Source: Verrucomicrobiota bacterium (lineage in GTDB: Bacteria > Verrucomicrobiota > Verrucomicrobiia > Limisphaerales > UBA1096). Taken from it: DNA of 64,000 nt. The stretch's first letter is position 1. Each line of letters starts with the position of its first letter. The notes under the pieces are model-generated. The model saw only the letters and a list, made by a program, of their open reading frames with translations. It made no database searches and was not told the DNA's origin. The translations under genes and the position numbers were made by a program. The stretch lies in the NCBI GenBank assembly GCA_014382705.1, contig JACNJE010000082.1, positions 19,665-83,664 on the forward strand, in the 5' to 3' direction. This document shows positions 255 to 63,174 of the stretch, piece by piece.

Positions 255-1721
255 ATGTCCAAGGAACCCGAGGGGCCCCCGAAGCCTGACCAACCCCAGA
301 CCGACGGCCAAGCGGAACCCCCCGAGACATCCCCCGGTCAGGAGACCCCCGAACAGGAAGCCGCCCCGGAAGCAGGCGGGGAATCCGGCCAAGCGCTTGG
401 CCAAGCGGACGGGGAGCACCCCGAACCGAGCGGGGACAATCAGGAACACGACGATCCCCACCATACGGAGGAAACGCCGCACGACGATCCGTATCACCAC
501 GATTACGAGCACGACGATCACGACGCCTATCACGCCCATCATGATGAGCATTACCGTCACGGGCATGAAGAATACCAAGGGGAACAACAAGGCGAACCCG
601 CCACAACCTTGCCCGTGCCGGTTGGCTCCGGCTCTGATGGAAATGGAGACAACGACCAGCCTGAACTTGATGAGGACGGCGAGGAATACGGCGGCCCGGT
701 CAAGTCGTTCCTCGAGCACATGGAGGATTTGCGCTGGATGCTCATCCGCTGCGTGGCTTCAGTGTTCGTGGCCATGGTCGTCTGCCTTGCCGGTGCCCCC
801 TACCTCGTCAAGGCGCTGGCTTGGCCGCTGAACAAGGCCAAGCATTCCCTCACAGAGAGCCGGGAAACCACCCTGCTCACGGAGAGCAAAAGTGAGATCC
901 TCATCCGGCTGACGGAAAAGGAGACGGTTCGAGTCCCGATTCTGACCAATCTCCTGGACGAAGCACGCAAACAGCTAAATCTGCCCGAATCGACCGGGGT
1001 TCCCGCGTTCCAACTCACCCCGGCGGTTGAGGACGGGAAGCTGCAGTTGCTCCTGAAGCCCGACACCAACACCGTCGCCAACAGTAACATCGCCACCCGG
1101 GCCGGGCCGGAACTCAAGGCGATGGGGCCACTCAGCGCGTTCCTGGTGGCGTTGCAGTTGGCGTTCTACGGCGGCATCATGGTGTCTTCCCCGTTCATCC
1201 TGTTTTTTGTCGGCCAGTTCACGATTCCGGCCCTGCGTAAAAAGGAGAAAAAATACCTCAAGCGGGGCGTGGTCGTGGGTGGCCTCCTGTTCTTCAGCGG
1301 TGTGGCGTTCTGCTATTTTCTGGTGATGCAAATCGCGCTGAGCACCTCGGCGCTGTTTGCCAACTGGCTCACGTTCGGGGCTGACGTCTGGCGGGCGGAG
1401 GATTACATCAACTTCGTCTGCAAGTTCATGCTCGGCATGGGCATCGCGTTCGAGCTGCCAGTCGTGATCCTGGTTCTGGTGAAAGTGGGCGTTCTCGACT
1501 ACAAGAAACTGTCGGCGTTCCGAATGTATTGGGTGGTCATCAACCTCGTGCTCGCCTCCATCCTGACGCCCCCGGATCTGGTCACCCAGATTCTCATGGC
1601 CCTGCCGATGCAGTTCTTTTATGAGTGCAGCGTTCTCATCGCCTGGATCTGGTATCGGCGTGACCGGAAACGAGAGGCGGCCGAGGCCGCGGCCAGCCCG
1701 ACCAATGGACCGGAAAAATAG
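255..1721 (+). CDS. tatC: Twin-arginine translocase subunit TatC with a long acidic/His-rich N-terminal extension and an enlarged first loop
   Basis: 488-aa ORF. The core from about aa 150 (SFLEHMEDLRWMLIRC..., multiple TM segments, ...TPPDLVTQ...) is TatC-like. Its position after tatA supports the call. Confidence 0.85.
   Translation: MSKEPEGPPKPDQPQTDGQAEPPETSPGQETPEQEAAPEAGGESGQALGQADGEHPEPSGDNQEHDDPHHTEETPHDDPYHHDYEHDDHDAYHAHHDEHYRHGHEEYQGEQQGEPATTLPVPVGSGSDGNGDNDQPELDEDGEEYGGPVKSFLEHMEDLRWMLIRCVASVFVAMVVCLAGAPYLVKALAWPLNKAKHSLTESRETTLLTESKSEILIRLTEKETVRVPILTNLLDEARKQLNLPESTGVPAFQLTPAVEDGKLQLLLKPDTNTVANSNIATRAGPELKAMGPLSAFLVALQLAFYGGIMVSSPFILFFVGQFTIPALRKKEKKYLKRGVVVGGLLFFSGVAFCYFLVMQIALSTSALFANWLTFGADVWRAEDYINFVCKFMLGMGIAFELPVVILVLVKVGVLDYKKLSAFRMYWVVINLVLASILTPPDLVTQILMALPMQFFYECSVLIAWIWYRRDRKREAAEAAASPTNGPEK
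388..410. repeat. Iterated palindrome, 1.5-unit form GGCCAAGCGCTTGGCCAAGCGGA (inside tatC)
   Basis: Exact 23-mer also present at 44517..44539. Confidence 0.9.
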
Positions 1722-1784
1722 CCCCAAAAGGCTTTACACAGGCAACCTTTCGACTACGCTGCCCGTCGCTTTTTGACTGATCCA

Positions 1785-2288
1785 ATGAGATATTTCGCAA
1801 AAACCGCCGCCGCTGCCGCCCTCATCGCCATTTTTTCCGTCGGCTGTGCCGGGCCCGAGAACAAGCTGGGGCGTGGCATCCGCAATTTCAGCGAGTTCAC
1901 CCGAATGGGTGAATTCAGCCGTTCCGTCGAGCAAACCGCCCTCTGGGACGGCCCGCAGCACGCCTACACCACCGGCGTTGTGCGCGGCCTAAGCCGAACC
2001 GCCGCCCGCACCGCCGTCGGTTTCGCGGAGATTATCACCTTCCCGATCCCCACCCCGGACTACGAACCATGGCTGAAAGCTGAGACCGTCTATCCCGATC
2101 CATCCATGGCCACGCTGGACTACCCGTGGGGCGGCATGGTGATGCCGGACGACGCCCTGTTCCCGGCCAGCTACACGCCCGGCCTTTGGGATGACGGCGT
2201 CTTCCACCCGAACACCGCCATCGGGTTCGGCGGCGGCGACGTGGCTCCGTTTTTCCCCGGCAGCCGTTTCAGGGTGTTTGACCACTGA
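1785..2288 (+). CDS. Lipoprotein resembling the exosortase-system-associated TIGR04073 family
   Basis: Lipobox signal (LIAIFSVGC). KLGRGIRN and GFAEIITFPIP motifs recalled from that family. The ATG at 1785 is preferred over the TTG at 1773. Family assignment is from memory only. Confidence 0.5.
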   Translation: MRYFAKTAAAAALIAIFSVGCAGPENKLGRGIRNFSEFTRMGEFSRSVEQTALWDGPQHAYTTGVVRGLSRTAARTAVGFAEIITFPIPTPDYEPWLKAETVYPDPSMATLDYPWGGMVMPDDALFPASYTPGLWDDGVFHPNTAIGFGGGDVAPFFPGSRFRVFDH

Positions 2289-2310
2289 GCCGCAGTTCAG
2301 CAACTTTCCC

Positions 2311-2340
2311 GGCGCCAGCCCTGCGGTTGGCGCCTTTTTT
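2311..2340 (+). terminator. Intrinsic terminator-like hairpin after the TIGR04073-like gene
   Basis: GGCGCCA (2311-2317) / TGGCGCC (2328-2334), a 10-nt loop, and T6 (2335-2340). It ends 5 nt before the ispE GTG. Confidence 0.55.
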
Positions 2341-2345: not shown

Positions 2346-3233
2346 GTGAAACTCAGTCGCCAATCGCACTGCAAAATCAACCTGCTGCTCAACGTCACCG
2401 GCCGGCGCGCCGATGGCTTTCACGAGCTGGAGATGCTGATGCTGCCGGTGCCGCTCTTTGATCGGCTCGACTTCGAGTTGGCCGGCGAGCGCATCGAGCT
2501 GACCTGCAACCGGCCCGGCATCCCCACCGACGCAGGCAACTTGGTTTGCCAAGCCGCCGAGTCGTTCGCGGCCAAGGCCAGCGTCTCCGGCGGCGTCCGC
2601 ATCCACCTCGAGAAAACCATCCCGGCCGAGGGCGGACTCGGCGGCGGCAGCGGCAACGCGGCGGCAACCCTCCTCGCGCTCAACGAGCTTCATGGCCAGC
2701 CGCTTGCCCAAGCGGCGCTTCAGGCGCTCGCCGCCGAACTCGGCAGCGACGTCCCATTCTTTCTGCAAGCCGAAGCCGCCGTGGCCAAGGGGCGCGGCGA
2801 GATCATCGAGCCGATCGCCCCGCTCACCGCGCTCGACGGCAAGGTGCTGCTGCTCGTCCGGCCCGGCTTCGGCGTCCCGACGCCGTGGGCGTACCGCAGC
2901 TTGGCCCAGTTTCCCGATGCGGCAACCCGCCCGCTTGGCCAAGCGGATGAACTGGCCAAACGGTTGGCCAACGGCTCACTCGCCGCTGCTGCCGGTGCGT
3001 TTTACAACTCACTCGAGGCGCCGGTCTTCGACAAGTTCCCGCTGCTGAAGTTGCTGAAAGAACACGCCTTGGCCAATGGCGCGGAGGCCGCGCTCCTGTG
3101 CGGAAGCGGCTCGACCGTCTTCGCAATCTGCCCGGACACGGCGGCGGCGCAGTCGCTTGGCCAAGCGATGGAGTCCAAATTCGGCCAGCAGCCACTCACG
3201 CAAGTCGTCCGGCTGCCTTGCAAAACAGGGTAA
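2346..3233 (+). CDS. ispE: 4-diphosphocytidyl-2-C-methyl-D-erythritol kinase
   Basis: N-terminal KINLLLNVTGRRADGFHELE and the GHMP kinase motif PAEGGLGGGSGNAAATLLAL. GTG start. Confidence 0.9.
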   Translation: MKLSRQSHCKINLLLNVTGRRADGFHELEMLMLPVPLFDRLDFELAGERIELTCNRPGIPTDAGNLVCQAAESFAAKASVSGGVRIHLEKTIPAEGGLGGGSGNAAATLLALNELHGQPLAQAALQALAAELGSDVPFFLQAEAAVAKGRGEIIEPIAPLTALDGKVLLLVRPGFGVPTPWAYRSLAQFPDAATRPLGQADELAKRLANGSLAAAAGAFYNSLEAPVFDKFPLLKLLKEHALANGAEAALLCGSGSTVFAICPDTAAAQSLGQAMESKFGQQPLTQVVRLPCKTG

Positions 3234-3777: not shown

Positions 3778-5220
3778 TTACAGCCAGCCCTTGAAAATCA
3801 GCGCGGGGAGGGTGCGCCATTTCATGCGGCGGATTTTTTTTGGCGACGCGCCGAGGTAGCGGGGGCGGCCGTCCACCGGCACCCCGTCCGGCCCGATGCG
3901 CACCCCTTTCCCTGTTATCCGCTCACGGATCGAGCGTAGCAGCTCAGCGGCCATCGCCTCGGAGTGGAATTCGATGGCAACTTCCGTGTTTAACCGCTCG
4001 GAGCGGGGGTCGATGTTGAACGAGCCGACCATCCCAATGCCGGCCCGCTCTAGGACCATGCTCTTGGCGTGCAGCGTCTCCATCCCCTCGCAGCCCGGTT
4101 CGCCGGCCAACTCGATAATCTCCAGCCCGAGCGCAAGGTAGGCCTCCTTCTCCCGCTGGTAAACCGCCTGCACGAGAAGGTTGTCGGTCGAGGCGAGGGA
4201 ATTGGTGAACACGACCACCCGGACACCGCGCCGGACGGCCTCGCCCAGCACGGCCCGGGCCTTTCTGGTCAGGATGAGGTAGGGCGACTCGATCCAGATC
4301 GTCTCCCCCGGTTTGGCACGGTTCACCAGCGCGGCAAGATGATGCCCGGTGTGGCGGCCGCGGGTTTTACGGCCCCCGGGATCGGACAGGAAACGGATTT
4401 CGTCCACCGGCTGCAGGCGCTGGTTCCAGTCGGTTCGGCTCGGCACCTCCACAACTTTGGGATGCGACTTAAACTCCGCCCACGTCCGGTCAAGCGCGGC
4501 GGCGGCCGCATCGATGTCGCGTTGAAGAATCGCCCGATGCACCGGCGGGATGGCCCGGCGGCGGCTCGCCGTGAGGCGCTTGGGCGCGGCGGCGGGCCGG
4601 GTGAGGCAGCGGTATTTACCGATGAGCATCGGCTTCACCTTCGGCCCGTTCCAGAGTGTCATGAAGTGCGCGTTGGCCTCCGCAGCGGTGTCGCCCTCGA
4701 CGAGGATGTCCCGGTCGATCCGGTTGCGATACGCCGAGTCTCCCTCCTTCCGGAACCGGCTCAGGCCGAAATAGGAGTTGTCGATATTGCGCCCGCCGGT
4801 GATCAACCTGTGGCCGTCCGCAATGAAAAGTTTGTCGTGCAAACGCCGGTTGAACCGAAACGGCTTCAGCGGGTCGAATGGGTGGAACACCCGGATCTCC
4901 ACGCCTTCCCGAACCAGGTGCGCGCCGAGATGCGCGGGAATACTGTTAAAAAGAGCATCAACCATCAGGCGCACCTTGACCCCGCGCCGGGCCGTTTCGC
5001 GCAGCAGCGCAAAACCCCGCATTGTGAAATCGTCCTCCTCTCCGCCGACGTAAAAGTAGGAAATGTTCAGCTCGCGCTTGGCCTCGTTGGCGAGGTCGAA
5101 TCGGGATTGCGCGGCCTCCATCGGGCCACTGAGCAAGCAGACACGGTCGCCCTTGGCCAACGGGACGGCAACCGCCAGCAGGGCGCAACACGCAAACAGG
5201 CGCTTGGCCAAGCGATTCAT
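3778..5220 (-). CDS. Secreted phospholipase D / cardiolipin-synthase-like protein (two HKD motifs)
   Basis: HKD motifs HDKLFIADGHRLITGGRNI and LHAKSMVLERAGIGMVGSFNIDPRS. Start set at MNRLAKRLFACCALLAVAV (signal peptide) rather than the upstream ORF start at 5337. Confidence 0.8.
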   Translation of the reverse strand: MNRLAKRLFACCALLAVAVPLAKGDRVCLLSGPMEAAQSRFDLANEAKRELNISYFYVGGEEDDFTMRGFALLRETARRGVKVRLMVDALFNSIPAHLGAHLVREGVEIRVFHPFDPLKPFRFNRRLHDKLFIADGHRLITGGRNIDNSYFGLSRFRKEGDSAYRNRIDRDILVEGDTAAEANAHFMTLWNGPKVKPMLIGKYRCLTRPAAAPKRLTASRRRAIPPVHRAILQRDIDAAAAALDRTWAEFKSHPKVVEVPSRTDWNQRLQPVDEIRFLSDPGGRKTRGRHTGHHLAALVNRAKPGETIWIESPYLILTRKARAVLGEAVRRGVRVVVFTNSLASTDNLLVQAVYQREKEAYLALGLEIIELAGEPGCEGMETLHAKSMVLERAGIGMVGSFNIDPRSERLNTEVAIEFHSEAMAAELLRSIRERITGKGVRIGPDGVPVDGRPRYLGASPKKIRRMKWRTLPALIFKGWL

Positions 5221-5280
5221 CCGTGGCGGTTGTATAACCGCAGAAACCCCCGGTAACAACAATATCCGCTTGGCCAAGCG
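5201..5280. repeat. Two copies of CGCTTGGCCAAGCG (5201-5214 in the PLD signal-peptide codons; 5267-5280 in the divergent spacer)
   Basis: Exact 14-mers read from the sequence. Confidence 0.9.
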
Positions 5281-5348: not shown

Positions 5349-8300
5349 ATGAAAACAGACACGCACCTCTCTCGTTGGTTTCGTTCGACCCGTCGCTTGG
5401 CCAAGGCAGCCGGGTTGAGTCTCGGCTTGGCCATGGTGGCGATAGGCCAAGCCGATCCGGCCAAGATCACCTCTCATCCGAGCGACCTGTCGGCGGAAGA
5501 GGGCACGTCGACCCGCCTGTCGGCTGAGGTGTCCGGGAGCCCGAACACCTACCGCTGGCACCGCGCCAACGGCGGTGGCGGCGCACTGGCCTTCGCGGGC
5601 GACAGCCAGTACGTCTCGGTGCCCATCGACGTGCCGGAGACGGAGTACACGGTGGAGTTTTGGTTTCGCACCGACGATCCCAACGCCGGGCTGTTCTGCG
5701 CGGTGGACGCCAACCTCGGCGGCGGCGGCCACGACCGGCACATCCATCTCGCCGACGGCAACATCCGCATCCGCACCTGGAGCGACCCCGGCGTGGAGGT
5801 GTCCGCCGGGCTGAACCTGGCCGACGGCAAGTGGCACCACATCGCGCACGTGATCAGCGTCGAGCTGGGCGGGCAGTTCGTTTACGTGGACGGCGAACCA
5901 GTGATCGAGGGGGTCAAGGATATGTCCAACTTCGACTGGCAGAAACACGTCAACATCGGGTTCTCCAACGATGCCGGCTCGCCACACCTCGTGGGAGAGA
6001 TGGATGAGCTGCGAATCTGGGACTACGCATTCGAGCAGGAGGAAATCCAGGCGCGGATGAACAAGCCGCTCAGCGGCGACGAGGAATGGCTGCTGGCCTA
6101 CTACAACTTTGACGAGACCGAGGGGGACACGCTGGCCGACTCGAGCGGCAACGAGTACGAGGGTGCGCTGATGAATTTCGCGGAAAGCGGCTGGGGTGCC
6201 TCGGCGGCCCGGCTCGGCGTGGAGTCCGCCATGAACGACGGCGGCGGCATCTCCGGCACCGACTCGGCGGAGCTGAAGTTCGCCCGCTTGGCCCAGGCCG
6301 ACGCGGACACCTACTTCCTGCGCGTGAGCAACCCGGACGGCGGCGTGGACAGCGACAAGGCCAGACTGACGGTCACCGTCGAGACCGTCCCGCCGGCCTT
6401 GGTTTCCCACGGGGCACTGGTCACTGAGGATGAGTTCACGGAAGTGGCCGTGCAGTTTGACGAGGCCCTGAACCCGGACGCCGCCGAGGAGGTCGGCAAC
6501 TACTCGATTGCCGGGGCCACCGTGGTGGATGCGATCCTGCAGGAGAGCGGCGACGGGGTGTTGCTCGATGTCGAGGGACTCGATACCGGCGACTACCAGT
6601 TGACCGTCTCGGGGCTGACCGATCTCGCCGGGAACAAGATGGCTCCCTCCAAGACCGGCGGCGGCTTCATCTCCCTGCAGCCGCTGAACATCGGCGACAT
6701 CGACCCCACCGGGGTGGCGCACAATTTCGGCGGCGAGATAGAGGTGATCTCCGGCGGTGCAGACATTTGGTCCAACGCCGATGACTTCACGTTTTTGTTC
6801 GAGGAAAAAACCGGCGACTTCGACATGGCGGTGCAGGTGCGCTCGATCAGCAACCCCAACGGATGGGCACGCAACGGCCTGATGGTGCGCGAGTCGCTGG
6901 ACGACATCAGCAAGATGCTGGGCGCGTTCGCCACTCCGCCCCACGGGCAGGGCTACTTCGCCCTCGATCGGCGCGAGGAGTCGGCCCAATGTTTCTGGTG
7001 GAACAACGACGGGACTCCCGGCAGCGCAGTGAAGCAGGGTGGCATCAAATACGGCAACGACACCGTGCCCGGCCTGCCCGACATTTGGATACGGCTGAAG
7101 CGTTCCGGAAACCGGTTCACCGCCTTCCGCAGCGGCAACGGCGAGGACTGGATCGAGCTGGGCGTGAACACGCTTGAGTTTTCGGACACGGTTTACTTTG
7201 GCATCTGCCAGTCCTCCCCGGGCGCCACCCGGTACGCCAACTACGGGCCGTTCGTGTACACCGGCACGGAGATCGCCATCACCGAGCCGCCGCAAACCGC
7301 CACCGCCACGCTGGGGTGGGAACACACGTTCCGCGTCGGCTACAAGGCCACGACGGCGGGCAAGCCGCTCGCCGAGGGGGAACTGTCGTTTCAATGGCTC
7401 AAAAACGGCCAAGCGATCGCGGGTGCCAACGGGCCAGCCTACACGACCCCGGGTGTGTTGAGCGCGGACGATGACGGCAGCCGCTACTCGGTGACCGTCA
7501 GCCTGGGCGATGTGGCCGCGACCTCCAGCGAGGCGGTGTTGTCCGTGGCCAAGGACAGCACCGCGCCCGTCGTGGCGTCGGCCAAGGCCACCAAGCCGGC
7601 GGGGGTTTCCGGCGGTGGCGCGGCGCTGGGCTTCAAGGGCGGTGGCCAATATGTATCGGTGCCAATCGATGTGCCGGAGACCGACTACACGGTGGAATTC
7701 TGGTTTCGCACAGAGGATCCCAACGCCGGCCTGTACTGCGTGGTGGACGCCAACCTCGGCGGTGGCGGGCACGACCGGCATCTGCACCTCACCGGGGGCA
7801 ACATCCGCGTCCGAACCTGGAGCGGCCCCGGCGTGGAGGTGTCCACCGGATTGAACCTGGCCGACGGCGAGTGGCATCACCTCGCCCACACTCTGGGTGC
7901 CGCCGCCAACGGCCAGCAGATTTTTATCGATGGCGAGCTGGTCGTCCAGGGTGGAAAGGATATGTCCAACTTCGACTGGCAAAAGCACGTCAACATCGGT
8001 TTCTCCAACGATGCCGCCTCGCAGTATCTCGTGGGCGAGATGGATGAACTCCGTATCTGGGGAACCGTCCGCACCGGGGAGGAAATCAACGCCTCCCGAA
8101 ACAAGCCGCTCAGTGGTGACGAGGACGACCTGATCGCCTACTACAACTTCGACCAAACCGAGGGAGACACGCTGGCCGACTTGAGCGGCAACGGACACGA
8201 CGGCGCGCTGATGGGAATGGGCGACCGCAACTGGGCCATGTCCGCCGCCCCGCTTGGCCAAGCGCCGATCGACGGCATTCAACTGCCGACCACGATCGAC

Positions 8301-11415: not shown

Positions 11416-11457
11416 CGCTTGGCCAAGCGTTCGGTTTGGTGGTAGCTTGGCCAAGCG
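11416..11457. repeat. Two palindrome copies 28 bp apart in the NYN/fmdB divergent spacer
   Basis: CGCTTGGCCAAGCG at 11416-11429 and aGCTTGGCCAAGCg at 11444-11457. Confidence 0.9.
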
Positions 11458-11917: not shown

Positions 11918-12950
11918 TCACGTCCCGGCGGCGCGGTTGAGGCGGTCGTGGAGGGCGGCCCAGTCGGGAGCAGATGGAAGTGCCTGCACCAGAATGGTTT
12001 CCGCGCCGAGTCGGTCGCAGCGGTGTAGTGTGTCGTACAGTTCCCGCGCAAAGCCATCCGGATCGTCCGGCAGGCGATGCCAACGCTCGCTTGGCCAAGC
12101 GTTGGGCGATGACTTGCGGGCGATGACGTGGGTGGCTTCCCCCGCTTGGCCAAGCGCAGCCGTAAGATCGCCGCAGACCACCAGTTTTGCCCTCGGCGAG
12201 TAGTGGCGCGGGAGTAGGCCGGGGCTTTTCAGCGGCCCAATCCCGGCGGACAGCTTGGCTGATACAACCCCGCCGAGGACGGCTTGCAGTTGGCCAAGCG
12301 AGATCATCCCCGGACGCAGGAGGGTCGGCGTGTCGCCGGTGAGGTCGAGTACGGTGGACTCGATGCCGAGATCGCACGCGCCGCCGTCGAGCACCAGCGG
12401 GATGCGGCCGCCGAGTTGATCGACGACATGCTCCGCGCGGGTCGGCGACAAGCGGTTCGAGCGGTTGGCGCTGGGGGCGGCGAGCGGGAAGCCGCACTTG
12501 GCCAGCACGCCGCGCATCACCGGGTGCGCGGGGCAGCGAACGGCCACGGTGGCGCCCCCGGCAGTGACGATGTCCGGAACCGTGACAGCCTTGGGCAGCA
12601 CGAGCGACAGCGGGCCAGGCCAAAATTGTTCGGCTATTTTTTCGGCCGCGCTTGGCCAGGCGGCGACACAGTCGCGGGCCATCCCGACGGAATCGACATG
12701 GACGATGAGCGGGTTGTCGGCGGGCCGGCCCTTGGCCTCGAAAATACGGGCGACGGCGTCGGGCGAGCGTGCGTCGGCGGCCAGGCCGTACACGGTCTCG
12801 GTCGGCAGCGCGACGAGATGCCCCTGCGCCAGCAGCCCGGCCGCTTGGCCAAGCGCGCCGGGCGCGTCCGCCGGTTGAACCTCTGTGCTGAAGGATGGTT
12901 CGCTCGGTTCAGTCACGGCGGTGGCGCGGTTGATCGCCCGACCACGTTCG

Positions 12951-15402: not shown

Positions 15403-15900
15403 ATGGACGGCGGCGACTGGGCGATTCGACTGACGGCGTTTCTCGCCTTTGCGGGGTATGTGCTCGCGCTGGCCGGTTGCGCCGGGCGGACGCGGCGGGC
15501 CGGGCCAAGCGGCAGCGGCTGGTGGGCGCTTGGCCTGGCGGCCTTCATGGCGCACCTGACCTGCGCCTTCCAATTCGAGCACGGCTGGAGCCATGCCCGG
15601 GCATTGGCGGCCACTGCCGCGCAAACGGCTGAGATCACCGGCGTCAACACCGGCGTCGGGCTTTACCTGAATTACGTCTTCGCCCTGGGCTGGACCGGGG
15701 ATGCCGCCTGGCGGCGCTTGGCCAAGCGGAGCCACGAGAGCCGGCCAGCCTGGGTGGGCGCGGCGCTGCACGGGTTCATGGCGTTCATGTGGCTCAACGC
15801 GACGGTGGTCTTTGGCTCGCCGTGGGGGCAGGCCGCCGGATGGGCGGCCGTCATCGGGCTGGGCGGATGGTTTGCGCTCCAGCGCGGGCGGGCGCTTTAG
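15403..15900 (+). CDS. Hypothetical integral membrane protein
   Basis: 165-aa ORF with about 4 hydrophobic segments. No family recognised. The coding call rests on ORF length and position only. Confidence 0.4.
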   Translation: MDGGDWAIRLTAFLAFAGYVLALAGCAGRTRRAGPSGSGWWALGLAAFMAHLTCAFQFEHGWSHARALAATAAQTAEITGVNTGVGLYLNYVFALGWTGDAAWRRLAKRSHESRPAWVGAALHGFMAFMWLNATVVFGSPWGQAAGWAAVIGLGGWFALQRGRAL

Positions 15901-19030: not shown

Positions 19031-19153
19031 TCGCTTGGCCAAGCGGAGGGTAGGAACTCCCCCCCGCTTGGCCAAGCGCATTCGCTCTCGGTCCCGCTCG
19101 GCGCTTTACCGGCCCGGGCGCACGGGGCAGACTGCCGCCCCGCTTGGCCAAGC
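19031..19153. repeat. Three palindrome copies in the histidine kinase/nfo divergent spacer
   Basis: 12-mer starts at 19032, 19065 and 19141. Confidence 0.9.
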
Positions 19154-23695: not shown

Positions 23696-23804
23696 GCTTA
23701 TGCGTTTTTACGTTAATGTCTATTGACATAGTGTAGATTTAAGCTGTACGTTGCCTGTTTGGGTGCCGCTTGGCCAACCGCTTGGCTCGGTATCTTTACC
23801 AAAT

Positions 23805-24065: not shown

Positions 24066-24090
24066 CAAGCTGGCCCGTTTTACGCTTCAT
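24062..24090 (+). promoter_or_regulatory. Candidate promoter for the riboswitch-controlled operon
   Basis: Perfect -35 TTGACA (24062-24067), a 17-nt spacer, and a weak -10 CTTCAT (24085-24090). It would start transcription about 15-20 nt before P1. Confidence 0.3.
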
Positions 24091-24112
24091 TCCGTGTCGC
24101 CGCCTTGGCGGC

Positions 24113-24231: not shown

Positions 24232-24252
24232 AGATCGCGGAATTAAATTTCA

Positions 24253-24284: not shown

Positions 24285-24323
24285 GTCCCACTCACTCCCA
24301 CCTTTCGCAACGGAAGCAGAACC

Positions 24324-25877: not shown

Positions 25878-25880
25878 CCC

Positions 25881-44517: not shown

Positions 44518-44539
44518 GCCAAGCGCTTGGCCAAGCGGA
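44517..44539. repeat. 1.5-unit palindrome filling the 23-bp convergent spacer between the prepilin peptidase gene and purF
   Basis: GGCCAAGCGCTTGGCCAAGCGGA, identical to 388..410. Its first base is the last base of the prepilin peptidase TAG stop. Confidence 0.9.
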
Positions 44540-48745: not shown

Positions 48746-51700
48746 ATGAGCCGCTTCCTGCATTTTCCCATTCTGCGTCACATTTGCCTGCTTTGGCTAG
48801 TCACGGGGTTGCCGTTGGCCAAGGCGGCCGAGCCGCCCGCCGCTTTGCCGCTGCTGGTGCAGCTCGAGGGGCAGGCGCTGGTTCCGTTTTATCTGGAGCA
48901 ACAGCAGGCCGGCCTCGGGCGCGTCGCGCTTGGCCAAGCGGTACGGCGACAGGCCAAGCGCATCGCCGCCGGGCAGGACGCGTTGGCCAAGCGGCTCGAG
49001 GCGGACGGTGTCCGGGTGACCCGGCGCTACTCCCGGCTTGTCAATGCCATGCGGGTTCGGGTCGCCCCGGAGAAGAAGGCCGCTTTGGCCAAGCAGGCCG
49101 GCGTGAAACGAGTTGAGCGGTTGCGGGTTTACGCGCCGCTCACCGCGAAAAGCGTCCCCGCAGTCGGCGCCAAGACAGCGTGGGGCACGCGCGCCACCGG
49201 CTTCGACGGGGCTGGCATGCGCATCGCCGTGATCGACTCCGGGTTGGATTACACGCACGCGATGTTCGGCGGCGCCGGCACGAAGGAGGCGTATCAGTCA
49301 AACGACGCCAACAAAGTCGAGGAGGGCACCTTCCCCACCGACAAGGTCGATGGCTGGGATTTTGCCGGCAGGGACTACTCCGGCGAGGAGGACGTGCCGC
49401 TGCCGGACGGCGACCCGCTCGACCGGTCCGGTTACGGCCACGGCACCCATGTCGCGGGGATCGTCGGCGGAGTCGGCGTGACAAAGCAGGGCCAGCCGTA
49501 TGACGGCGACTACTACGCTGGGCTGGATTATTCCAGCTTCCTCCTCAAGCCGGGAGTGGCCCCGAAGGCCAAGTTGTATGCGCTGAAGATTTTCGGCGAC
49601 AACGCGCTCGGCACAACGAACCTCGTCCTCGACGCGCTGGAATGGTGCGCCGACCCCAATGGCGACAACGACTTTTCCGACCGCGTCGACGTGGTCAACC
49701 TTTCGCTCGGCTCCACGCTGGGCCTCGAGGAAAAACATGAGGCCGAGGCCGAGGTGTTCGCTCACCTCACGCGGCTGGGCTGCGTGATCGTCTCGGGCGC
49801 TGGCAACTCGAACAACAACAATTTCTACCTCGTCGCCGCGCCCGGAGTGGAGCGGTCGGTCATTGCCGTCGGCTCGGCCAAGCACGACGGCGAGGTGTAC
49901 CGCATGGCAGCGCACAGCGCGCGCGGGCCGTCCTCCCCGTACAGTCTGCTCAAGCCGGAGATCACCGCGCCGGGTGAGTTGATCCAGTCGGCCAGGATGG
50001 GGACTGGCACCGGCGGCGCGTGGTTCACCGGCACCTCGCTGGCCACACCGCACGTTGCCGGGGCGGCCGCCTTGGCCATGCAGGCGCATCCCGGCTGGAG
50101 CGCCACCGAGATCAAGGCATCGCTGCTGAATACCGCCAACCCGATGCGGCACCAAAACGGCACGCCGTACCCGGAGTCACTTGCCGGAGCCGGGTTCCTC
50201 GACGTGGCTCGCGCGGTCACCACCCCCGTGACGGCCATGGCGGAGGGCAACGACGGGCTGACGACGCTGTCACTCGGCGCGCTGGCCCTCGCCAAGCCGT
50301 GGGAGGAGACACGGCAAATCCGGGTGGCCAACCATGGCGACACGGCGGCCCAGTTTGCCCTGTCCATTGAGGAAACGGTTACGGAAACCGGCTTTGGCGT
50401 CGAGTTGCCGGTGAATCAAGTCACCGTCGCGGCCGGGTCGCACGAGTTGGTGCCGGTGCGATTCCACGCCGACCCGGCCCAGTTCGACCGCACCGGCGAC
50501 CCGCTCACCCCGGCCAAGCTCAACGACCGCGCCCGAAGCTGGATTTACGAGGTCAGCGGCAAGGTCGTGCTGGCCAACGACACCGGGAAACTGCGGGTGC
50601 CGTACCACGCCGTCGTCCGCGCCGCCGCAGACCGGAAAAGCTCACTGTCCCGGCTTGGCCTGCCGGCCCGCGATCTCGTGACGCTCGAGCTGCCGCTCGA
50701 GGGCGGCTCGGCGCACCCGAGGCCGCTGGTGTCGGTGTTCGAGCTGGCCGGGATCAGCCCGCGCAACAAGTTGCTCACCGACCCGGCCGACATCGCCGCC
50801 GACATACTGGCGTTCGGCGTGGCGTCGGACTACCCGCAAACCGGCTCGGTGGCGGAGACGACGCTTTACTTCGGCATCGCCAACGCCGGGCCATGGACGA
50901 ATCCGCACTCGTTCCTTTACGACCCGCACCTGCAGATCGACATCGATTTCAACGGCTGGATCGACCACGAGCTGGCCAGTTGCAGCAACGGCGGCTTCAT
51001 CAAGGATGACCTCACCGTGTCCGCCTACGCCGACGACGTGTTTCTCTCCATCCTCATCCGTGTGCCACGCGATGAGCGCGGCATGGCCGATGCCGGCTAC
51101 CTCAACGTCTTCCCGCCGAACCAGTACGACACGGTGCCGTTCAACAACAGCGTGATGGTGCTCCCGGTCCCGGCGCGCTTGCTCGGGCTCAACGAGGAGA
51201 AAACTGACTTTCAATTTCGCCTGCTCAACCTCGGCCCGGAGCAGTACGGCTACCCGGAGATCGACCGCACGGAGCTGATCCGCTACGACGTGACCCAGCC
51301 GGTGGTGCACTCGGCGCTGGGCATCGGCGGCACGGTGATGCACGACGCCAACGCGCCGGTGCACGTCGCCGTGGACCGCGGCTTGGCCAAGCGGAACGGC
51401 CTCCGGCCCGCCGTGCTGCTGCTGCACCACATGAACAGCGGCGCCCACAAGTTCGACATCGTGGCGCTTGGCCTCGATGCGGACGACGGCGACGGTGACG
51501 GGGCGAGCGACGCCGACGAGCTTGCCGCCGGGACCGACCCGGCCGACCCGGCCTCGGTGTTCGCCATCCTGGCAGCGAGGCCAAGCGCGCCCGGCCCGGA
51601 GATCCGCTGGCACAGCGTGGCTGGCAAATCGTACCAAGTGCAGCGGACCGCCGCGCTTGGCCAAGCGTTCGAGACCGTCTCCGGCCCGCTGCCGGCCACC

Positions 51701-53588: not shown

Positions 53589-53604
53589 GCGCTTGGCCAA
53601 GCGC
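53589..53604. repeat. 16-bp palindrome GCGCTTGGCCAAGCGC touching the EEP gene stop codon
   Basis: Read from the sequence. The same 18-mer CGCTTGGCCAAGCGCTA occurs at 54492. Confidence 0.9.
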
Positions 53605-54491: not shown

Positions 54492-54505
54492 CGCTTGGCC
54501 AAGCG
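54492..54505. repeat. Palindrome copy abutting the AEC permease stop codon
   Basis: Exact 14-mer immediately followed by CTA (the TAG stop on the minus strand). Confidence 0.9.
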
Positions 54506-57409: not shown

Positions 57410-58183
57410 TCAATCGAGCTTGACCGGTTTCAAAACGATTTTACGGAAGGCCACCGGGCCGTGGTCGCCCTGCAACATCAGCGGGCCGGTGGGCTGTTCG
57501 TCGGCGAACGCCGCCGCCCGCGTCGGGCCGGTCACCTCGACGTCGTGGTGGATCAGCTGCCCGTTGTGGATCACCTTGACGAACCGGGCGTTCGCGATTT
57601 TTTTCCCGGCCTTGTCGAAGCGCGGCGCGCGGAAGGTGACGATGAGCTTCTGCCACTGGCCCGGCGGCCTGCTGGCGTTGACGATGGGTGCGGCGCCCCC
57701 GAAGCCCTTGCCGTCGGCCCAGCGCTCGTAGACGCCGCCGTTGTCGCCGGAGGTAATTTTCTTTTTCCCGAAGCTGTCGAAAATCTGGATCTCGTACCGA
57801 CCCTGGAAATAAATCCCGGAGTTCGATCCCTGCGGCACCATGTACTCGATGGCCGCCATCACGTCGCCGTGCACCTGCTTGCTGAACAGATTGCTCGTAC
57901 GGCCGTTGTCGCCGTTGACGAGTACACCCTTGCCGGCGGCGAGCGCCAGCCTCTTCGGGTTGTCCGGCGCCGGCGTGGCGGTCTTCGCCAGTTTCCAGTC
58001 GCCCAGCGGCGCGCGCCAGCCGTCGAGCGACTGGCCGTTGCTGACGGTGATGCTGGTCTTGGCCGGGGGCGGGGGCGGGGCTAACTGCGCCCGCGCTTGG
58101 CCAAGCGCAAGCACCCCGGCCGACAGCAGGAGGCGGCGCCAGGCCAAGCGGGATGCCTCACTTGTGATCTCAAAAAAACGCAT
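57410..58183 (-). CDS. DUF1080 (3-keto-disaccharide hydrolase-like) secreted protein
   Basis: Signal peptide and ...LMLQGDHGPVAFRKIVLKPV, a C-terminal pattern typical of DUF1080. Start set at MRFFEITS (58183). Confidence 0.7.
   Translation of the reverse strand: MRFFEITSEASRLAWRRLLLSAGVLALGQARAQLAPPPPPAKTSITVSNGQSLDGWRAPLGDWKLAKTATPAPDNPKRLALAAGKGVLVNGDNGRTSNLFSKQVHGDVMAAIEYMVPQGSNSGIYFQGRYEIQIFDSFGKKKITSGDNGGVYERWADGKGFGGAAPIVNASRPPGQWQKLIVTFRAPRFDKAGKKIANARFVKVIHNGQLIHHDVEVTGPTRAAAFADEQPTGPLMLQGDHGPVAFRKIVLKPVKLD
58093..58108. repeat. 16-bp palindrome inside the DUF1080 signal-peptide codons
   Basis: GCGCTTGGCCAAGCGC. Translates as ..LALGQARA.. Confidence 0.9.
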
Positions 58184-59209: not shown

Positions 59210-61065
59210 CCCGGCAGCACGCCGCGCTTCTCAAGCATCTCCGCCATCACACGGTCCATCATCCGCTCCGCCAGCGGCTGCGTGGCGACGTCGAGTTTGC
59301 CGTTGGCTTCCTTAAGCTCGGCTGCCGTCACCGGTGCCTCACGCCCCGGCTTGGCCAACAGCGACTCCACCGCCGCCAGCGCCGACTCGATCGCCCCACG
59401 CTGATCCGCCGCCAGCTCGCCGCCGAGCGTCTCCAGCCCTTTTCGTGTGGCCTCCGTGGTTTGCTCGGCGCGCAGCTTGGCCTCGATCCAACGCCGTTCC
59501 TCGATGTCGTCAAATGCGTGCTCGACCGATTCCTCGATCATTTGCTGCACTTCGGCATCATCGACCTCCACGGCAGAACTCATCTCGACGAGCTTTTCGT
59601 TGCCGGTTTTGATGTCTCGCGCCAGCACGTGCAAAATCCCGTCGGCGTCGATCTCGAACTGTACGCCCACCTTGGCCACGCCCTTCGGTTGCGGCTCGAA
59701 CTCGAGCGTGAACCGCCCGAGGCTCCAGTTGTCGGCCGCCTTTTCGCGCTCGCCCTGCAGCACGTGGATGAGCACCTCTTTTTGGTAGTCGGCCACCGTC
59801 GTAAACGCCTCGCCGCGCTTCACCGGGATCGTTGTGTTGCGCGGGAGGATCACGTTCATCAACCCGCCGAACGTCTCGATGCCGAGTGAGAGCGGCGTCA
59901 CGTCCAGCAGCAGCATTCCGCTGAAGTCGCCGGACAAAATCCCGGCCTGAATCGCCGCCCCCAGCGCAATCGCCTCGTCCGGATTCTGCGACGTGTTCAG
60001 CTCCGGCCCGCCGTCGCCGCACCCGAACACCCCCGACGCAAACTCGCGCACAAGCGGCATCCGCGTCTGCCCGCCGACAAGGATCACCTGATCGAGATCG
60101 CCGTTGGCCAAGCCGGCATCGGCCAGCGCCTTGAAGCAATACTCCCGCGTGCGCGTGACAATCGGCTTGGCCAAGCTCGAAAGTTGTTCCCGCGTCAGCG
60201 TGTGCTCGAAACTGAATCCTGGCGTCAGAAACGGCAGCTCGATGGCCGTCTTGGCTTCCGTGGACAACCGCGCCTTGGCCTCCTCCGCCGCCTCGGCCAA
60301 GCGCGCCCACAGCGCCGGATCACCGGCAACGCTTGGCCCGCCCGCTTGGCCAATCTGTTCGGCCAAGTGATCGATCAACGCGCGGTCGATGTCGTCGCCG
60401 CCCAGCTGCGTGTTGCCGCAGGTGGCCAACACTTGAAACACGCCCTCGTTCAACTCGAGGATCGACAGGTCGAACGTCCCGCCGCCGAGATCGTACACCG
60501 CCACCTTCGATTTTTCCTTCAGCGAACCCAGCCCGTAAGCCAGCGCGGCGGCGGTCGGCTCGTTGATGATGCGCTCCACCCGCAGCCCCGCCAGCTCGCC
60601 GGCCTTGCGCGTCGCGTTGCGCTGGGCGTCATTGAAATAAGCCGGCACCGTGATCACCGCCGCCTCTGGCCGGTCGATCATCCCCTCCGCCGCAATCGTC
60701 CGGAGCGCCTTCAGAATCTCGGCGGACAATTCCTCCGGCGACCAATCGCGCCCGTGCAATGGCACCGCCACCGGCCCGCTGCCCTCGGCGCGGATCGGAT
60801 ACGCCATCGTGTCGCCGGTCGACTCCACCTCGCCGCCGCGGCGTCCCATGAACCGCTTGATGGACGTGACCGTCGTCTCCGGATGGGCTGCCCGCCCGCG
60901 CCTGGCCTCCCAACCGACCACCGGCTCGCCGGCCGCCGGGACACGCACCACCGACGGCATCAACCGCCGCCCTTGGCCGTCCGCCAACACCAGCGGAATG
61001 CCGGACTCCACGATCGCCACCAGCGAATTCGTCGTGCCAAGGTCTATGCCAATAATTTTCCCCAC
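59206..61065 (-). CDS. Hsp70-family chaperone (HscA/DnaK-like)
   Basis: [27 protein letters not shown] and DLGGGTFD motifs. Confidence 0.85.
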
Positions 61066-61135: not shown

Positions 61136-61149
61136 CGCTTGGCCAAGCG
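61136..61149. repeat. Palindrome copy in the hsp70/lipoprotein divergent spacer
   Basis: Exact 14-mer, 16 nt upstream of the lipoprotein ATG. Confidence 0.9.
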
Positions 61150-61164: not shown

Positions 61165-62481
61165 ATGCGTTGGGGTTGTCTTTTGGGTTTTGTGCTGCTG
61201 CTGACGGGGTGTGCCAGTTACGAGAGCCAGACCGGGGCGTTTCGCGGGGCGTGGAACGGCGGCAGCACGGGGCAGGCCGCGCAGATCGCCAGCCGGGAAG
61301 TCGGCAAACGCAGCGACTCGCGCGACGCCGTGGTGTGGTTTCTCGAGCAAGGCGCGGCGCTCCGATCCGACGGCCAGTTCGCGGCCAGCAACCACGCGTT
61401 CGAGCAGGCCGAAAAGCGGATCGCGTTTTACGACCGGCAGGCAAAGTTGCGGCTATCGAGGGAGACCACCGGTTTGCTGACCAACTTAGCCACGTTGCCG
61501 TATGAGGGGCGCGGCTACGACCGGGTGATGCTCAACACGTATCAGGCGCTGAATTTCCTGCAGCTTGGCCAAGCGGAGGCCGCGCTGGTCGAGTTGCGGC
61601 AGGCGCACACTGCGCAGGATGCCGAGGTCGTCCGCAACGCACGCCGCATCGTCGCCGCCCGCAAGTCCGCCGGGGAATACGAGCGGGCCATTCGCGGCGT
61701 GCAACTTGACGATCTTCAGCCGGACCTCGCGCTGGACTATGGCGCGTTCGTCAACCCATTCACCGATTTTTTGCACGCGCTCTGCCTCTGGAGCCTCGCT
61801 GCTGATGACCGCGAAAACGCACTCGTCTCGCTCCGTCGCATCCACTCGACGCTGGGTGGGCCGGGGTTTCTCGCGGAGGAAATCAAACGGGTCGATCGCA
61901 TCCTCGGCGGCGCGAAGCATCCCGACCTGACGTACGTCATCTTTGAGACCGGCGTGGCGCCGATCCGCCGCGAGGTCAGGCTCGACGTGCCGTTGCGCAG
62001 TGAAAAGGTGCGCTACGTCGCGGCGGCATTTCCCCGGCTCGAACCGCGGGGCCGGCCGACTCCCGCGCATATTGCCATCGGCGGGGAGCGGCACGAGGCG
62101 ACGCTGATTTGCGACATGGATGCCGTGGTCGGACGCGACTTTCGCACTGAGTTGCCGGCAGTGGTATTGCGCACGCTGGCCGCCGCCGCCGCCAAGGCGG
62201 CGATTGCGAAAAAAGTGCGGGAGGAATCCGGCGACCTCGGCGCGATCGCCGCACTGCTTTATCAGGCGACTACCGCCCAGGCCGATCTCCGCACGTGGAC
62301 CACGCTGCCGAAGGCGTTCCGCGTCTGCCGCGTCGAGACGCCGGGCGACCGCAAATTGACGCTGCTCGTCGGCCCGCAAAAAAACGAGGTCACGGTGAAT
62401 ACCGGCCGCGTGAACGTGGTCTGTGTCAAAAGTTTTGCGCCGGGAGCGCCCTTGCAGATTCAACAGTTTCGACTAAAATAA
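61165..62481 (+). CDS. Lipoprotein of unknown function (COG3014-like, tentative)
   Basis: Lipobox LGFVLLLTGC. 438 aa. Start chosen inside the long 60184..62481 ORF, where the signal peptide begins. Confidence 0.45.
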   Translation: MRWGCLLGFVLLLTGCASYESQTGAFRGAWNGGSTGQAAQIASREVGKRSDSRDAVVWFLEQGAALRSDGQFAASNHAFEQAEKRIAFYDRQAKLRLSRETTGLLTNLATLPYEGRGYDRVMLNTYQALNFLQLGQAEAALVELRQAHTAQDAEVVRNARRIVAARKSAGEYERAIRGVQLDDLQPDLALDYGAFVNPFTDFLHALCLWSLAADDRENALVSLRRIHSTLGGPGFLAEEIKRVDRILGGAKHPDLTYVIFETGVAPIRREVRLDVPLRSEKVRYVAAAFPRLEPRGRPTPAHIAIGGERHEATLICDMDAVVGRDFRTELPAVVLRTLAAAAAKAAIAKKVREESGDLGAIAALLYQATTAQADLRTWTTLPKAFRVCRVETPGDRKLTLLVGPQKNEVTVNTGRVNVVCVKSFAPGAPLQIQQFRLK

Positions 62482-62490
62482 ATCGCAGAC

Positions 62491-63099
62491 ATGAAATCGG
62501 GAATCAAACTCATCGCCGCCGCCGTGCTGCCCGCGCTCGCGCTGGGCTGCGCCACGGCCAAGTACATCGACCACGACGGCCGCGACAGCGTGGTCAACGT
62601 CGGCCAAATCAACACTCAGGACTGGATCCGCGCGGCCGACGAGTTGACGCAATCGCTGCTGCTCTCCGGCGCGATCCAGTCGGTCGCCGGCAAGCCGAAG
62701 GTGCTGATGATCGGCCGCATCAAAAACAACACCACGCAGCACATCGACACCGACAGTTTGATGAAAAAAATCCGCGTGGCGCTGAACAAGGGGGGCCGCG
62801 CGCTGACCACCACGGCAGTCGGCCTTGACGGCCCGGAGGATGCGTCGTCCAAGGCGGTGCGCGAGTTGCGGGCCGACGACGAGTTCAACCAAGCGACCCT
62901 CCCCGGCAAGGGCAATCTCGTCTCCCCCGACTACAGTTTGTCCGGCAAGATCATCCAGAACGACGCCCGCGCCGGCCGCATCAAGCAGTCCGAGTTTGCC
63001 TTTCAGCTTTCGCTGACCGACTTGAAAACCGGCCTGGCCGTTTGGGAGGAGGAGAAGCTCATCGTCAAGCAGGGCTCACGCGCTGCGGTGGGGTGGTAA
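62491..63099 (+). CDS. LpoB-like lipoprotein (penicillin-binding protein activator family, tentative)
   Basis: Lipobox LALGC and ...KPKVLMIGRIKNNTTQHIDTDSLMKKIRVAL... resemble LpoB/YcfM (COG3417). Assignment from memory. Confidence 0.5.
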   Translation: MKSGIKLIAAAVLPALALGCATAKYIDHDGRDSVVNVGQINTQDWIRAADELTQSLLLSGAIQSVAGKPKVLMIGRIKNNTTQHIDTDSLMKKIRVALNKGGRALTTTAVGLDGPEDASSKAVRELRADDEFNQATLPGKGNLVSPDYSLSGKIIQNDARAGRIKQSEFAFQLSLTDLKTGLAVWEEEKLIVKQGSRAAVGW

Positions 63100-63150
63100 G
63101 TTTCCCGGTTCCTGATTGGGACGAGGTGGAACCCGTTCCTCCCGCAGCTC

Positions 63151-63174
63151 TTTTGCGCTTGGCCAAGCGCAAAA
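63151..63174. repeat. 24-bp perfect palindrome TTTTGCGCTTGGCCAAGCGCAAAA (bidirectional terminator-like)
   Basis: Read from the sequence. Located 52 nt after the lpoB-like stop and 56 nt before the next ATG. Confidence 0.9.

Follow-up and report, generated by a model that had tools for sequence, protein, structure and literature searches.

Genomic placement of an iterated palindrome

Our analysis concerns a perfect palindrome, the 12-mer GCTTGGCCAAGC, which recurs throughout a 64-kb stretch of a Verrucomicrobiota contig (assembly GCA_014382705.1, JACNJE010000082.1, positions 19,665 to 83,664), hereafter the window; loci from relatives and metagenome contigs were examined alongside it. Exact search of the window recovers 41 copies of this word, compared with 0.02 on average, and never more than 1, in 100 dinucleotide-preserving shuffles, and 28 of them extend to the 14-mer CGCTTGGCCAAGCG. 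Both numbers are those that the initial annotation had counted by eye, and the recount thus disposes of its own worry that the counts might be grossly wrong. Its 12-mer positions are likewise correct save for four copies placed off by one (395 rather than 396, 19033 rather than 19032, 19066 rather than 19065, and 19142 rather than 19141), and the two to three dozen one-mismatch copies it estimated correspond to the 26 counted here.

A gene model built from open reading frames (ORFs), codon-position GC and Pfam places 25 of the 41 copies in reading frames (61%) and 16 in spacers, so that the majority in genes reported earlier holds while the 26/15 split does not. The in-gene copies occupy all three frames, reading L-G-Q-A in 15 cases, L-A-K-R/P in 8 and A-W-P-S in 2; unless marked as 12-mer only, each copy listed below extends to the 14-mer. 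The L-G-Q-A copies are located in tatC (395–406), the GHMP kinase gene (2933–2944 and 3155–3166), the giant Laminin_G_3 gene (8252–8263), sua5 (12144–12155 and 12843–12854), the hybrid histidine kinase gene (15904–15915 and 15967–15978, both 12-mer only), the DUF7133-HEAT-cytochrome c gene (22293–22304, 12-mer only), the polysaccharide export gene (40966–40977, 12-mer only), aroE (42635–42646), purL (46524–46535, 12-mer only), the subtilase gene (48928–48939 and 51655–51666) and a 3-keto-disaccharide hydrolase-like gene (58095–58106). Among these, the copy at 15904 forms the last codons of the histidine kinase gene (LGQAG-stop) and at the same time lies 3 nt past the stop of an opposite-strand ORF of 165 aa. 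The L-A-K-R frame is used at the 5' end of the PLD-like gene (5202–5213), in that 165-aa membrane-protein ORF (15716–15727), and in the DUF7133 (22168–22179), secretin (32861–32872), UvrD/PcrA-type helicase (37413–37424, 12-mer only) and subtilase (51381–51392, 12-mer only) genes, and L-A-K-P is encoded in the prepilin peptidase gene (43532–43543) and dnaK (60165–60176), both 12-mer only. The two A-W-P-S copies belong to sua5 (12089–12100) and the DUF7133 gene (22640–22651).

Three divergent spacers hold copies of the word, namely those between the PLD-like and Laminin_G genes (5268–5279), between yacP and a Zn-ribbon gene (11417–11428 and, 16 nt away, the 12-mer-only copy 11445–11456), and between the histidine kinase and AP_endonuc_2 genes (19033–19044, 19066–19077 and the 12-mer-only copy 19142–19153). 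Other spacer copies follow closely upon stop codons, 6 nt past that of the secretin gene (30819–30830), 5 nt past glnS (34059–34070), 8 nt past the UvrD/PcrA-type helicase gene (35876–35887, 12-mer only), 2 nt past the Wzz/tyrosine-kinase gene (37982–37993), and 1 nt past the Exo_endo_phos (53591–53602) and Mem_trans (54493–54504) genes. At 44525–44536, a single copy serves two convergent stops, 7 nt past that of the prepilin peptidase gene and 4 nt past that of purF. Two further copies lie in an unannotated 1.4-kb stretch upstream of dnaK (61137–61148, and 61563–61574 as 12-mer only), and one in the spacer after an LpoB-like gene (63157–63168).

Excess and anatomy of the word

The word is built from nested palindromes, and we refer to its central 8-mer TTGGCCAA, 10-mer CTTGGCCAAG, 12-mer and 14-mer as cores of increasing length. 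The window contains 782 copies of GGCC, 152 of TGGCCA, 86 of the 8-mer, 65 of the 10-mer, 41 of the 12-mer and 28 of the 14-mer. GGCC alone is not over-represented, whereas the 8-mer is by far the commonest palindromic octamer of the window, the runner-up having 16 copies. In addition to the 12-mers, 24 further 10-mers start at 5396, 9411, 10707, 21569, 21680, 23365, 24590, 26870, 27598, 28043, 29877, 33878, 34217, 37213, 39889, 42258, 42813, 43253, 44568, 46421, 47429, 48650, 55471 and 55625, and 21 further 8-mers at 2964, 3069, 5153, 12290, 23287, 23770, 26085, 26584, 27067, 29164, 33320, 35700, 40001, 41447, 48815, 48983, 49085, 58349, 59351, 60104 and 60346, these weaker copies together spanning 2964–60353. 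The longest stretch of the window that lacks an exact 12-mer (22652–30818, 8.2 kb) still holds six 10-mer cores and six 8-mer-only cores, and the copies there thus have imperfect outer bases.

The window has a GC content of 63% and contains no compositional island. Markov models of orders 1 to 5 trained on the window predict 0.01, 0.03, 0.11, 1.3 and 6.9 copies of the 12-mer, respectively. The rise at orders 4 and 5 occurs because the motif itself dominates the training counts, and even these values fall well below the observed 41, a comparison that the initial annotation had asked for on the scale of the genome. A maximal-order model, which expects 38 copies, proved uninformative: nearly all of the 10- and 11-mers that it draws on are parts of the motif, and low-order models and shuffles are therefore the valid controls.

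A symmetrised profile of 1772 TGGCCA-centred sites from the window and related DNA shows information falling outward from the centre (T 0.68, C 0.66, G 0.50, C 0.48, S 0.78), with a full consensus of S-CGC-TTGGCCAA-GCG-S and no conservation beyond ±8 nt. Near-misses are fewer than exact copies. The excess over expectation, (O–E)/E, is 5679 for sites without mismatch and 102, 9.7 and 1.2 with increasing mismatch load, that is, it drops 56-fold and then 10-fold. One-off variants are concentrated at the outermost base (position 1 or 12), in 18 of 26 cases in the window and 209 of 310 in the pooled set. By comparison, the centre is nearly invariant where the arms are intact (GGCC in 616 of about 660 sites, GACC in 8, GGCA in 7 and AGCC in 5). 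The copies have unique flanks and share no surrounding sequence, and the distances between cores are near exponential (28 to 3066 nt; coefficient of variation 1.05).

A second dyad centre (AAGC|GCTT) is visible in CCAAGCGCTTGG, which occurs four times in the window and marks overlapping units with a 12-nt period; CAAGCGCTTG ranks second among palindromic 10-mers in L123 and L205, two related loci described below. The 23-nt form of one and a half units noted earlier, GGCCAAGCGCTTGGCCAAGCGGA, is indeed present twice, at 44517–44539 around the convergent-stop copy as stated and at 387–409 around the tatC copy, the latter start having been given as 388. These forms hint that the word may on occasion grow in tandem.

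The centre of the word is that of classical restriction-modification sites, TGGCCA being recognized by MscI/BalI and GGCC by HaeIII. One possible account of its abundance is modelled on methylation-directed biased repair as proposed for the highly iterated palindromes (HIPs) of cyanobacteria (Elhai 2015, PMC4390886): an orphan methyltransferase would mark the central TGGCCA/GGCC, and a methyl-dependent or mismatch-specific nicking enzyme would resolve heteroduplexes toward the word-matching strand, an intracellular ratchet that would both create and restore copies. The perfect palindrome with its restriction-modification core, the variants confined largely to the outermost bases, as Elhai reports for HIP1, and a density of about 0.3–0.65 per kb, within the HIP range of 500–2500 per Mb, are all consistent with this account. 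However, the graded specificity over 14–16 bp reaches far beyond known methyltransferase sites, and the ratchet described for HIPs extends a site by no more than one base on either side (Elhai 2015, PMC4390886). Nor do the centre counts given above show a clear footprint of m5C deamination at GGCC. Pfam, regular expressions for motifs, and tblastn searches with M.HaeIII, with Vsr and with Dam revealed no m5C or N6/N4 methyltransferase and no Vsr homologue, either in the window or in clade contigs totalling about 1.1 Mb; the power of this search was low, since it sampled a small fraction of many genomes. Two NPPY-containing ORFs turned out to encode DUF7133 and LTD/CotH proteins.

Effects on codons and peptides

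Within genes, the word leaves a pronounced trace in both codon use and amino-acid sequence. The codon series CTT-GGC-CAA (CTTGGCCAA) encodes 23 of the 28 Leu-Gly-Gln (LGQ) tripeptides in the window, in which 10% of leucines are encoded by CTT and 32% of glutamines by CAA, and TTG-GCC-AAG (TTGGCCAAG) encodes 28 of the 42 LAK tripeptides. The two commonest tetrapeptides of the window are LGQA (16 versus 0.6 expected) and LAKR (13 versus 0.5), about 25 times the expectation from composition. Because the LGQ and LAK tripeptides mostly use one codon set, which for LGQ includes otherwise rare codons, the signal acts at the level of DNA and not of protein, overriding codon usage and amino-acid choice.

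The copies are also distributed unevenly among genes. No exact copy is found in the highly conserved H+-PPase, glnS, purH, fumarase, flagellin and infC genes, whereas the less conserved sua5, DUF7133, subtilase and GHMP kinase genes contain two to three each, and the motif sites of sua5 sit in variable protein segments. Constrained sequence thus excludes copies of the word. Such a preference for tolerant frames and genes, together with inflation of the encoded peptides, is also characteristic of uptake sequences.

Placement in spacers and past stop codons

About a third of the copies lie in annotated spacers, which account for about 5% of the window, a roughly ten-fold excess over the coding density. 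This excess is concentrated 0–23 nt past stop codons, and in 11 of the 42 window genes a core begins 1–10 nt past the stop, against about 0.7 expected, a placement that the initial annotation did not remark upon. Consistent with the window, an 8-fold post-stop excess is observed for 100 genes of four unbiased loci, and a 2–3-fold excess for 943 genes of metagenome contigs after masking of the word pairs by which those contigs had been selected.

This placement raises the question of an RNA-level signal, in which the word would form mRNA 3'-end hairpins, terminators or processing sites past stops in the manner of repetitive extragenic palindromic (REP) elements, with the in-gene copies as by-products. 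Pairs of copies 16–21 nt apart are predicted to fold at –30 to –38 kcal/mol, the copies at 11417 and 11445 forming a possible RNA hairpin of –30 kcal/mol and those at 19033 and 19066 one of –38 kcal/mol. These pairs, however, belong to clusters in divergent 5' spacers (11417/11445 and 19033/19066/19142) rather than at 3' ends, and a lone copy folds weakly (–1 to –7 kcal/mol). Terminator-like sites are not enriched (28, compared with 20.6 ± 4.7 after shuffling), and no more than one or two of them fall on the word. A general role as intrinsic terminator is rejected on these two grounds, the weak single-copy fold and the lack of terminator enrichment. With 61% of copies intragenic and spread over all three frames, and with no Rfam family overlapping any copy in a scan of the window, we consider an RNA-level role of the word very improbable. 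The only Rfam match of the window is a SAM (S-adenosylmethionine) riboswitch (RF00162, 88 bits, 24114–24230 on the plus strand), located upstream of a gene for a PLP (pyridoxal phosphate)-dependent enzyme (24324–25583).

Origin and retention of individual copies

Comparison with relatives reveals how single copies come and go. In an alignment of Sua5, relatives down to an identity of about 61–65% retain all three of the peptides that the motif encodes, whereas Limisphaerales-type homologues have unrelated residues in their place and no indel at the motif. At the DNA level, the most informative comparison is with L123, a syntenic locus that is 70% identical to the window over 21 kb. Of about 28 core sites, 13 occupy identical positions in L123, often with 14 nt identical, while chance conservation of a 10-mer would amount to about 3% (0.7 to the power of 10). 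Kept in L123 are the copies at 3155, 5268, 8252, 11417, 12144 (kept in L205 too, and degraded in L203), 12843, 15716, 19033, 19066, 22168 and 22293. Core sites that are not shared face near-misses with one to three changes, such as CTTTGGTCAAG and GCCTGGCCAAG; the site at 11445 is one-off in L123, that at 22640 has near-misses in both L123 and L203, and the counterpart of the copy at 19142 is offset by 5 nt. From the shared positions and the near-misses without indels, the alignments indicate that copies are made and lost in place by point substitution, in genes and spacers alike, and that they are kept far longer than the surrounding DNA. A model in which the word is inserted as a block of 12 nt (four codons) is ruled out by the orthologue alignments, in which substitutions and no motif-site indels are seen. 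L001 and L002 are 100% identical to the window and hence offer no changes that could be polarised.

The same observations bear on two other explanations. Remnants of miniature mobile elements, such as REP elements with their associated tyrosine transposases (RAYTs) or miniature inverted-repeat transposable elements (MITEs), or a duplicated segment, would account for a repeated palindrome and perhaps for the close pairs and 1.5-unit forms. Yet the flanks are unconserved, there are no terminal repeats or target duplications, the window encodes no transposase, in-frame copies in conserved genes show no indels relative to orthologues, and the word is present on at least 119 unrelated contigs. A mobile origin is scarcely credible and already contradicted by these data.

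The retention of sites is more readily compatible with a structural function, in which an abundant nucleoid-associated or chromosome-organising protein would bind the word and each copy would be under selection, as has been proposed for HIP1 (Xu et al. 2018, PMC5861425). About 50% of sites are kept at 70% DNA identity, against the 3% just mentioned, the clusters in divergent promoter spacers are conserved in L123, and dimeric DNA-binding proteins typically recognise a dyad of 14–16 bp whose information is graded. However, spacing in the window is random below 3 kb; for HIP1, periodicity has been reported at longer scales, 10–90 kb. Neither the halo of sites with one to three mismatches nor the apparent loss of the word in a nested lineage (see below) is easily explained by per-site selection. 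Moreover, tens of copies per genome, and not thousands, are usual for known structural sites (parS, matS and Noc-binding sites). We regard a structural role as unlikely.

Distribution among relatives

A 116.7-kb ENA metagenome contig and a Logan contig each contain parts identical to the window, and the Sua5 that the window encodes is NCBI MBC8243776.1. Four loci syntenic with the window carry the word: L123 (UBA6775; GC 55%, Sua5 identity 65–67%) has 14 exact 12-mers in 21 kb, L205 (a metagenome contig; GC 55%, 61–64%) has 8 in 21 kb, L207 (TARA; GC 51%, 66–68%) has 5 in 11 kb, and L327 (a metagenome contig; GC 68%, 61%) has 2 in 8.7 kb. By comparison, the exact 12-mer is absent from 13 loci of the next Verrucomicrobiota relatives, comprising eleven genome loci (Sua5 identity 47–53%), L328 (59%) and L329 (54%). 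Four loci with Verrucomicrobia-like Sua5 (L127, L130, L134 and L137; 47–53% identity, GC 58–66%) come from records named Klebsiella pneumoniae, uncultured Klebsiella sp., Akkermansia muciniphila and Candidatus Kuenenia stuttgartiensis, which by their look are mislabelled.

Beyond the syntenic loci, at least 119 metagenome contigs, nearly all marine and with a GC content of 44–66%, carry two copies 5–35 nt apart; beyond these pairs, the contigs listed have exact 12-mers at a median density of 0.32 per kb. The word is therefore not confined to the region in which it was first noticed, a possibility that the initial annotation had left standing, and its density is similar in the window, the related contigs and the metagenome contigs (0.3–0.65 exact 12-mers per kb). 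Its presence on related loci and metagenome contigs of 44–68% GC indicates a word that is genome-wide, clade-wide and independent of base composition in a mostly marine, uncultured clade of Verrucomicrobiota, whose DNA carries it about once per 1–3 kb.

One lineage departs from this pattern. The loci L203 and L204 (JGI 3300037802 Ga0402110_000018 and 3300012950 Ga0163108_10001258) resemble the window more in protein sequence than L123 and L205 do, with identities of 86% versus 78% for H+-PPase, 81% versus 70% for the histidine kinase and 81% versus 62% for the DUF7133 protein. Even so, 19.7 kb of this lineage contain just one exact 12-mer together with seven cores, a 12-mer density reduced about 10-fold, and the orthologous sites have decayed by one to three substitutions. 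As judged by a branching order taken from percent identities only, it appears to be nested within the clade, and the simplest reading is a secondary relaxation or loss of the word. An ORF for a 165-aa membrane protein (15403–15900 on the plus strand of the window), situated between the histidine kinase and H+-PPase genes and present in L123, L205 and L207 as well, is missing from the low-density locus L203 (7531–7768). This is probably a coincidence, and a small membrane protein is not plausible as a DNA reader.

The word is also found on phage-like DNA. L071 (IMGVR_UViG_3300032087_002358, 13.7 kb) encodes a terminase large subunit, a DnaB helicase, a DnaD-like loader, an exonuclease and RusA, and contains 8 copies of the 8-mer, 4 of the 10-mer, 2 exact 12-mers and 20 of TGGCCA; it is probably a phage or prophage of the clade that carries the word of its host. 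In the viral collection as a whole, the 14-mer yields chance singletons only, one of these loci being the core-enriched phage fragment, and the paired motif gives no match. TGGCCA is avoided neither in the host nor in L071, and the 20 copies on the latter argue that the site is not being restricted. These observations speak in part for methylation-directed repair, since a process acting on any DNA that replicates in the cell would enrich a phage too, an unavoided TGGCCA is compatible with an orphan enzyme, and a low-density lineage would be explained by loss of that enzyme. On balance we rank this explanation second, behind the acquisition of tagged DNA considered next, as a possible but rather doubtful one.

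Possible drive through acquired and recombined DNA

The explanation we tentatively favour, with a confidence that stops somewhat short of even, is biased acquisition or recombination of DNA tagged by the word. A two-fold symmetric, sequence-specific protein of the clade would read the word over 14–16 bp, and DNA bearing it would be favoured when DNA of relatives is acquired and recombined. This could come about by preferential binding or uptake, as with the uptake signal sequences (USS) of Pasteurellaceae and the DNA uptake sequences (DUS) of Neisseriaceae, or by protection of the incoming strand or stimulation of its recombination in a Chi-like manner. Better-matching alleles would then replace worse-matching ones, and near-matches would be turned into matches, so that the word would owe its abundance to molecular drive and not to an advantage at the individual sites. 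The places open to copies would be restricted by purifying selection on proteins and on regulatory DNA, and hence tolerant frames, poorly conserved protein segments and the space just past stop codons would be preferred.

Acquisition is placed first on several grounds. The length of the word and its graded specificity fit such a process, and the 56-fold and 10-fold drops with mismatch load resemble those of USS and DUS, which amount to 92/82-fold and then 9/7-fold (Bakkali 2007, PMC1939737). The 61% of copies in ORFs compares with 65%, 49% and 34.5% in three uptake-sequence genomes (Findlay & Redfield 2009, PMC2817400). Furthermore, the effects on frames and peptides and the placement at gene ends and in hairpin-forming pairs parallel uptake sequences, and HIP1, for which a methylation-dependent boost of transformation has been reported, has been hypothesised to act as an uptake signal.

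Several observations weigh against acquisition. To our knowledge, all experimentally established uptake sequences are asymmetric, and a perfect dyad with a GGCC/TGGCCA centre resembles the targets of restriction-modification systems or dimeric regulators. Nothing indicates that these bacteria are transformable. The secretin and A24 prepilin peptidase that the initial annotation offered as a hint of DNA uptake are both encoded in the window; the hint is weak, as the secretin scores equally and below threshold for PilQ, MshL and GspD and is not assignable to type IV pili. The window contains no comEA, comEC or dprA, and no receptor or other reader protein was identified. The core enrichment on the phage-like L071 fits an intracellular process at least as well. 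In addition, similar mismatch-load profiles have been described for other over-represented oligomers (Bakkali 2007, PMC1939737), and the profile therefore does not separate one drive from another. Positional conservation, for its part, could reflect selection at each site, as argued for HIP1 (Xu, Lawrence & Durand 2018, PMC5861425).

In a bolder form, which strikes us as open to more doubt than biased acquisition itself, a trans-acting system of this widespread clade would write and maintain a palindromic 'self' word of 14–16 bp at thousands of places in each genome. This would amount to either the first palindromic uptake or recombination tag outside Proteobacteria or a sequence-directed repair or conversion system with a specificity far longer than that of the methyltransferase-based HIP models. 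If the word is an uptake or recombination tag, natural transformation in the clade is implied.

The role and the origin of highly iterated palindromes have been a question for HIP1 for about 30 years. The word provides an independent case in another phylum, much longer, with a more than 5000-fold excess, a measurable cost in codons and protein sequence, and a related low-density lineage; together the excess, the cost and this lineage make it possible to seek the reader gene by phylogenetic profiling, with L203/L204 as a natural low-density lineage in which comparative genomics could find the gene responsible. Drive can also be tested against selection with existing marine population metagenomes and long-read methylation data. 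The word also serves as a diagnostic tag for binning contigs and phages of the clade, and it biases peptide statistics and ORF-level annotation in the clade genomes.

Two loci sampled by chance carry other hyper-abundant palindromic octamers. L143 (JAGQHN010000015.1, metagenome-assembled genome (MAG) Trueperaceae bacterium HKST-UBA01, Deinococcota) has 20 copies of GCTCGAGC in 20.9 kb, a HIP-like octamer with an observed/expected ratio of 72 and no 10-mer extension. L192 (JBJOMN010000037.1, a Bacteroidota MAG) has 7 copies of TTCCGGAA in 12.9 kb (observed/expected 37), which may be another iterated palindrome. The phenomenon may thus be commoner than the literature suggests, which would make the present word less surprising and more general.

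Comparison with known systems

Several classes of repeat are readily set apart from the word, in agreement with the initial annotation, which had ruled out a CRISPR (clustered regularly interspaced short palindromic repeats) array or an insertion sequence (IS) and considered a classical REP unlikely; the unique flanks, the 61% share in reading frames and the origin by substitution in situ bear this out. Distances as uneven as those between cores (28 to 3066 nt, coefficient of variation 1.05) are not those of a CRISPR array, and the window shows no conserved body, terminal inverted repeats, target-site duplication or transposase of a MITE or IS. REP elements and the bacterial interspersed mosaic elements (BIMEs) that they form are, like the word, palindromic, occur in pairs and are reportedly often situated just past stop codons. 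They differ in being strictly extragenic, 20–40 nt long, imperfect and RAYT-associated, whereas 25 of the 41 copies here lie in reading frames and the word is a perfect dyad of 12–16 nt. Chi sites of RecBCD/AddAB, too, are short words that are specific to a species and over-represented in it, and like the word they could give 'self' DNA an advantage in recombination; a Chi-like role has been suggested for HIP1. By comparison, Chi is asymmetric, strand-oriented, 5–8 nt long and far less over-represented, and the word is its own reverse complement.

The likeness to HIP1 (GCGATCGC) pointed out in the initial annotation is borne out by the palindrome, its dispersal and density and the bias of variants toward outer bases. 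Like HIP1 and the alternate cyanobacterial HIPs (PMC4390886; PMC5861425), the word is a GC-rich perfect palindrome with a restriction-site core. It occurs hundreds to thousands of times per Mb (1340 per Mb for the 8-mer and 640 per Mb for the 12-mer, within the quoted HIP range of 500–2500 per Mb), is dispersed over genes and spacers without shared flanks at positions conserved between genomes, deviates by single nucleotides mostly at its first and last positions, and is lineage-specific, shared within its clade, with lineages that appear to have lost it. HIP1 proper, with its GATC/CGATCG core in cyanobacteria, is a different word, present 8 times in the window. The two differ in sequence and phylum, in recognisable length (12–16 bp here versus 5–8 bp), in observed/expected ratio (more than 5000 here versus 15–300), and in the strong spacer and post-stop excess and large proteome effect seen here.

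The resemblance to USS and DUS (PMC2817400; PMC1939737) is equally broad, and the density of the word falls in their range, as had been claimed. Both consist of a clade-specific core of 9–12 nt with a weaker extended consensus and a graded halo of mismatches, at about 0.4–1 per kb, shared at about family level, evolving by point mutation and showing a mismatch-load profile of the same shape. Common to both are, furthermore, a reading-frame bias, inflation of the encoded peptides (about 2-fold in USS/DUS versus about 25-fold here) and a preference for poorly conserved genes. An excess downstream of genes and hairpin-forming pairs are reportedly features of USS and DUS as well. The known uptake sequences differ in being asymmetric where the word is a perfect dyad.

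A full-text literature search on the word at lengths of 12, 10 and 8 nt and on uptake sequences or iterated palindromes in Verrucomicrobia, with most subscription journals outside its coverage, found no description of the motif, as the initial annotation had supposed. The word is apparently an undescribed counterpart of HIP1 and of the uptake sequences, combining the descriptive features of both classes.

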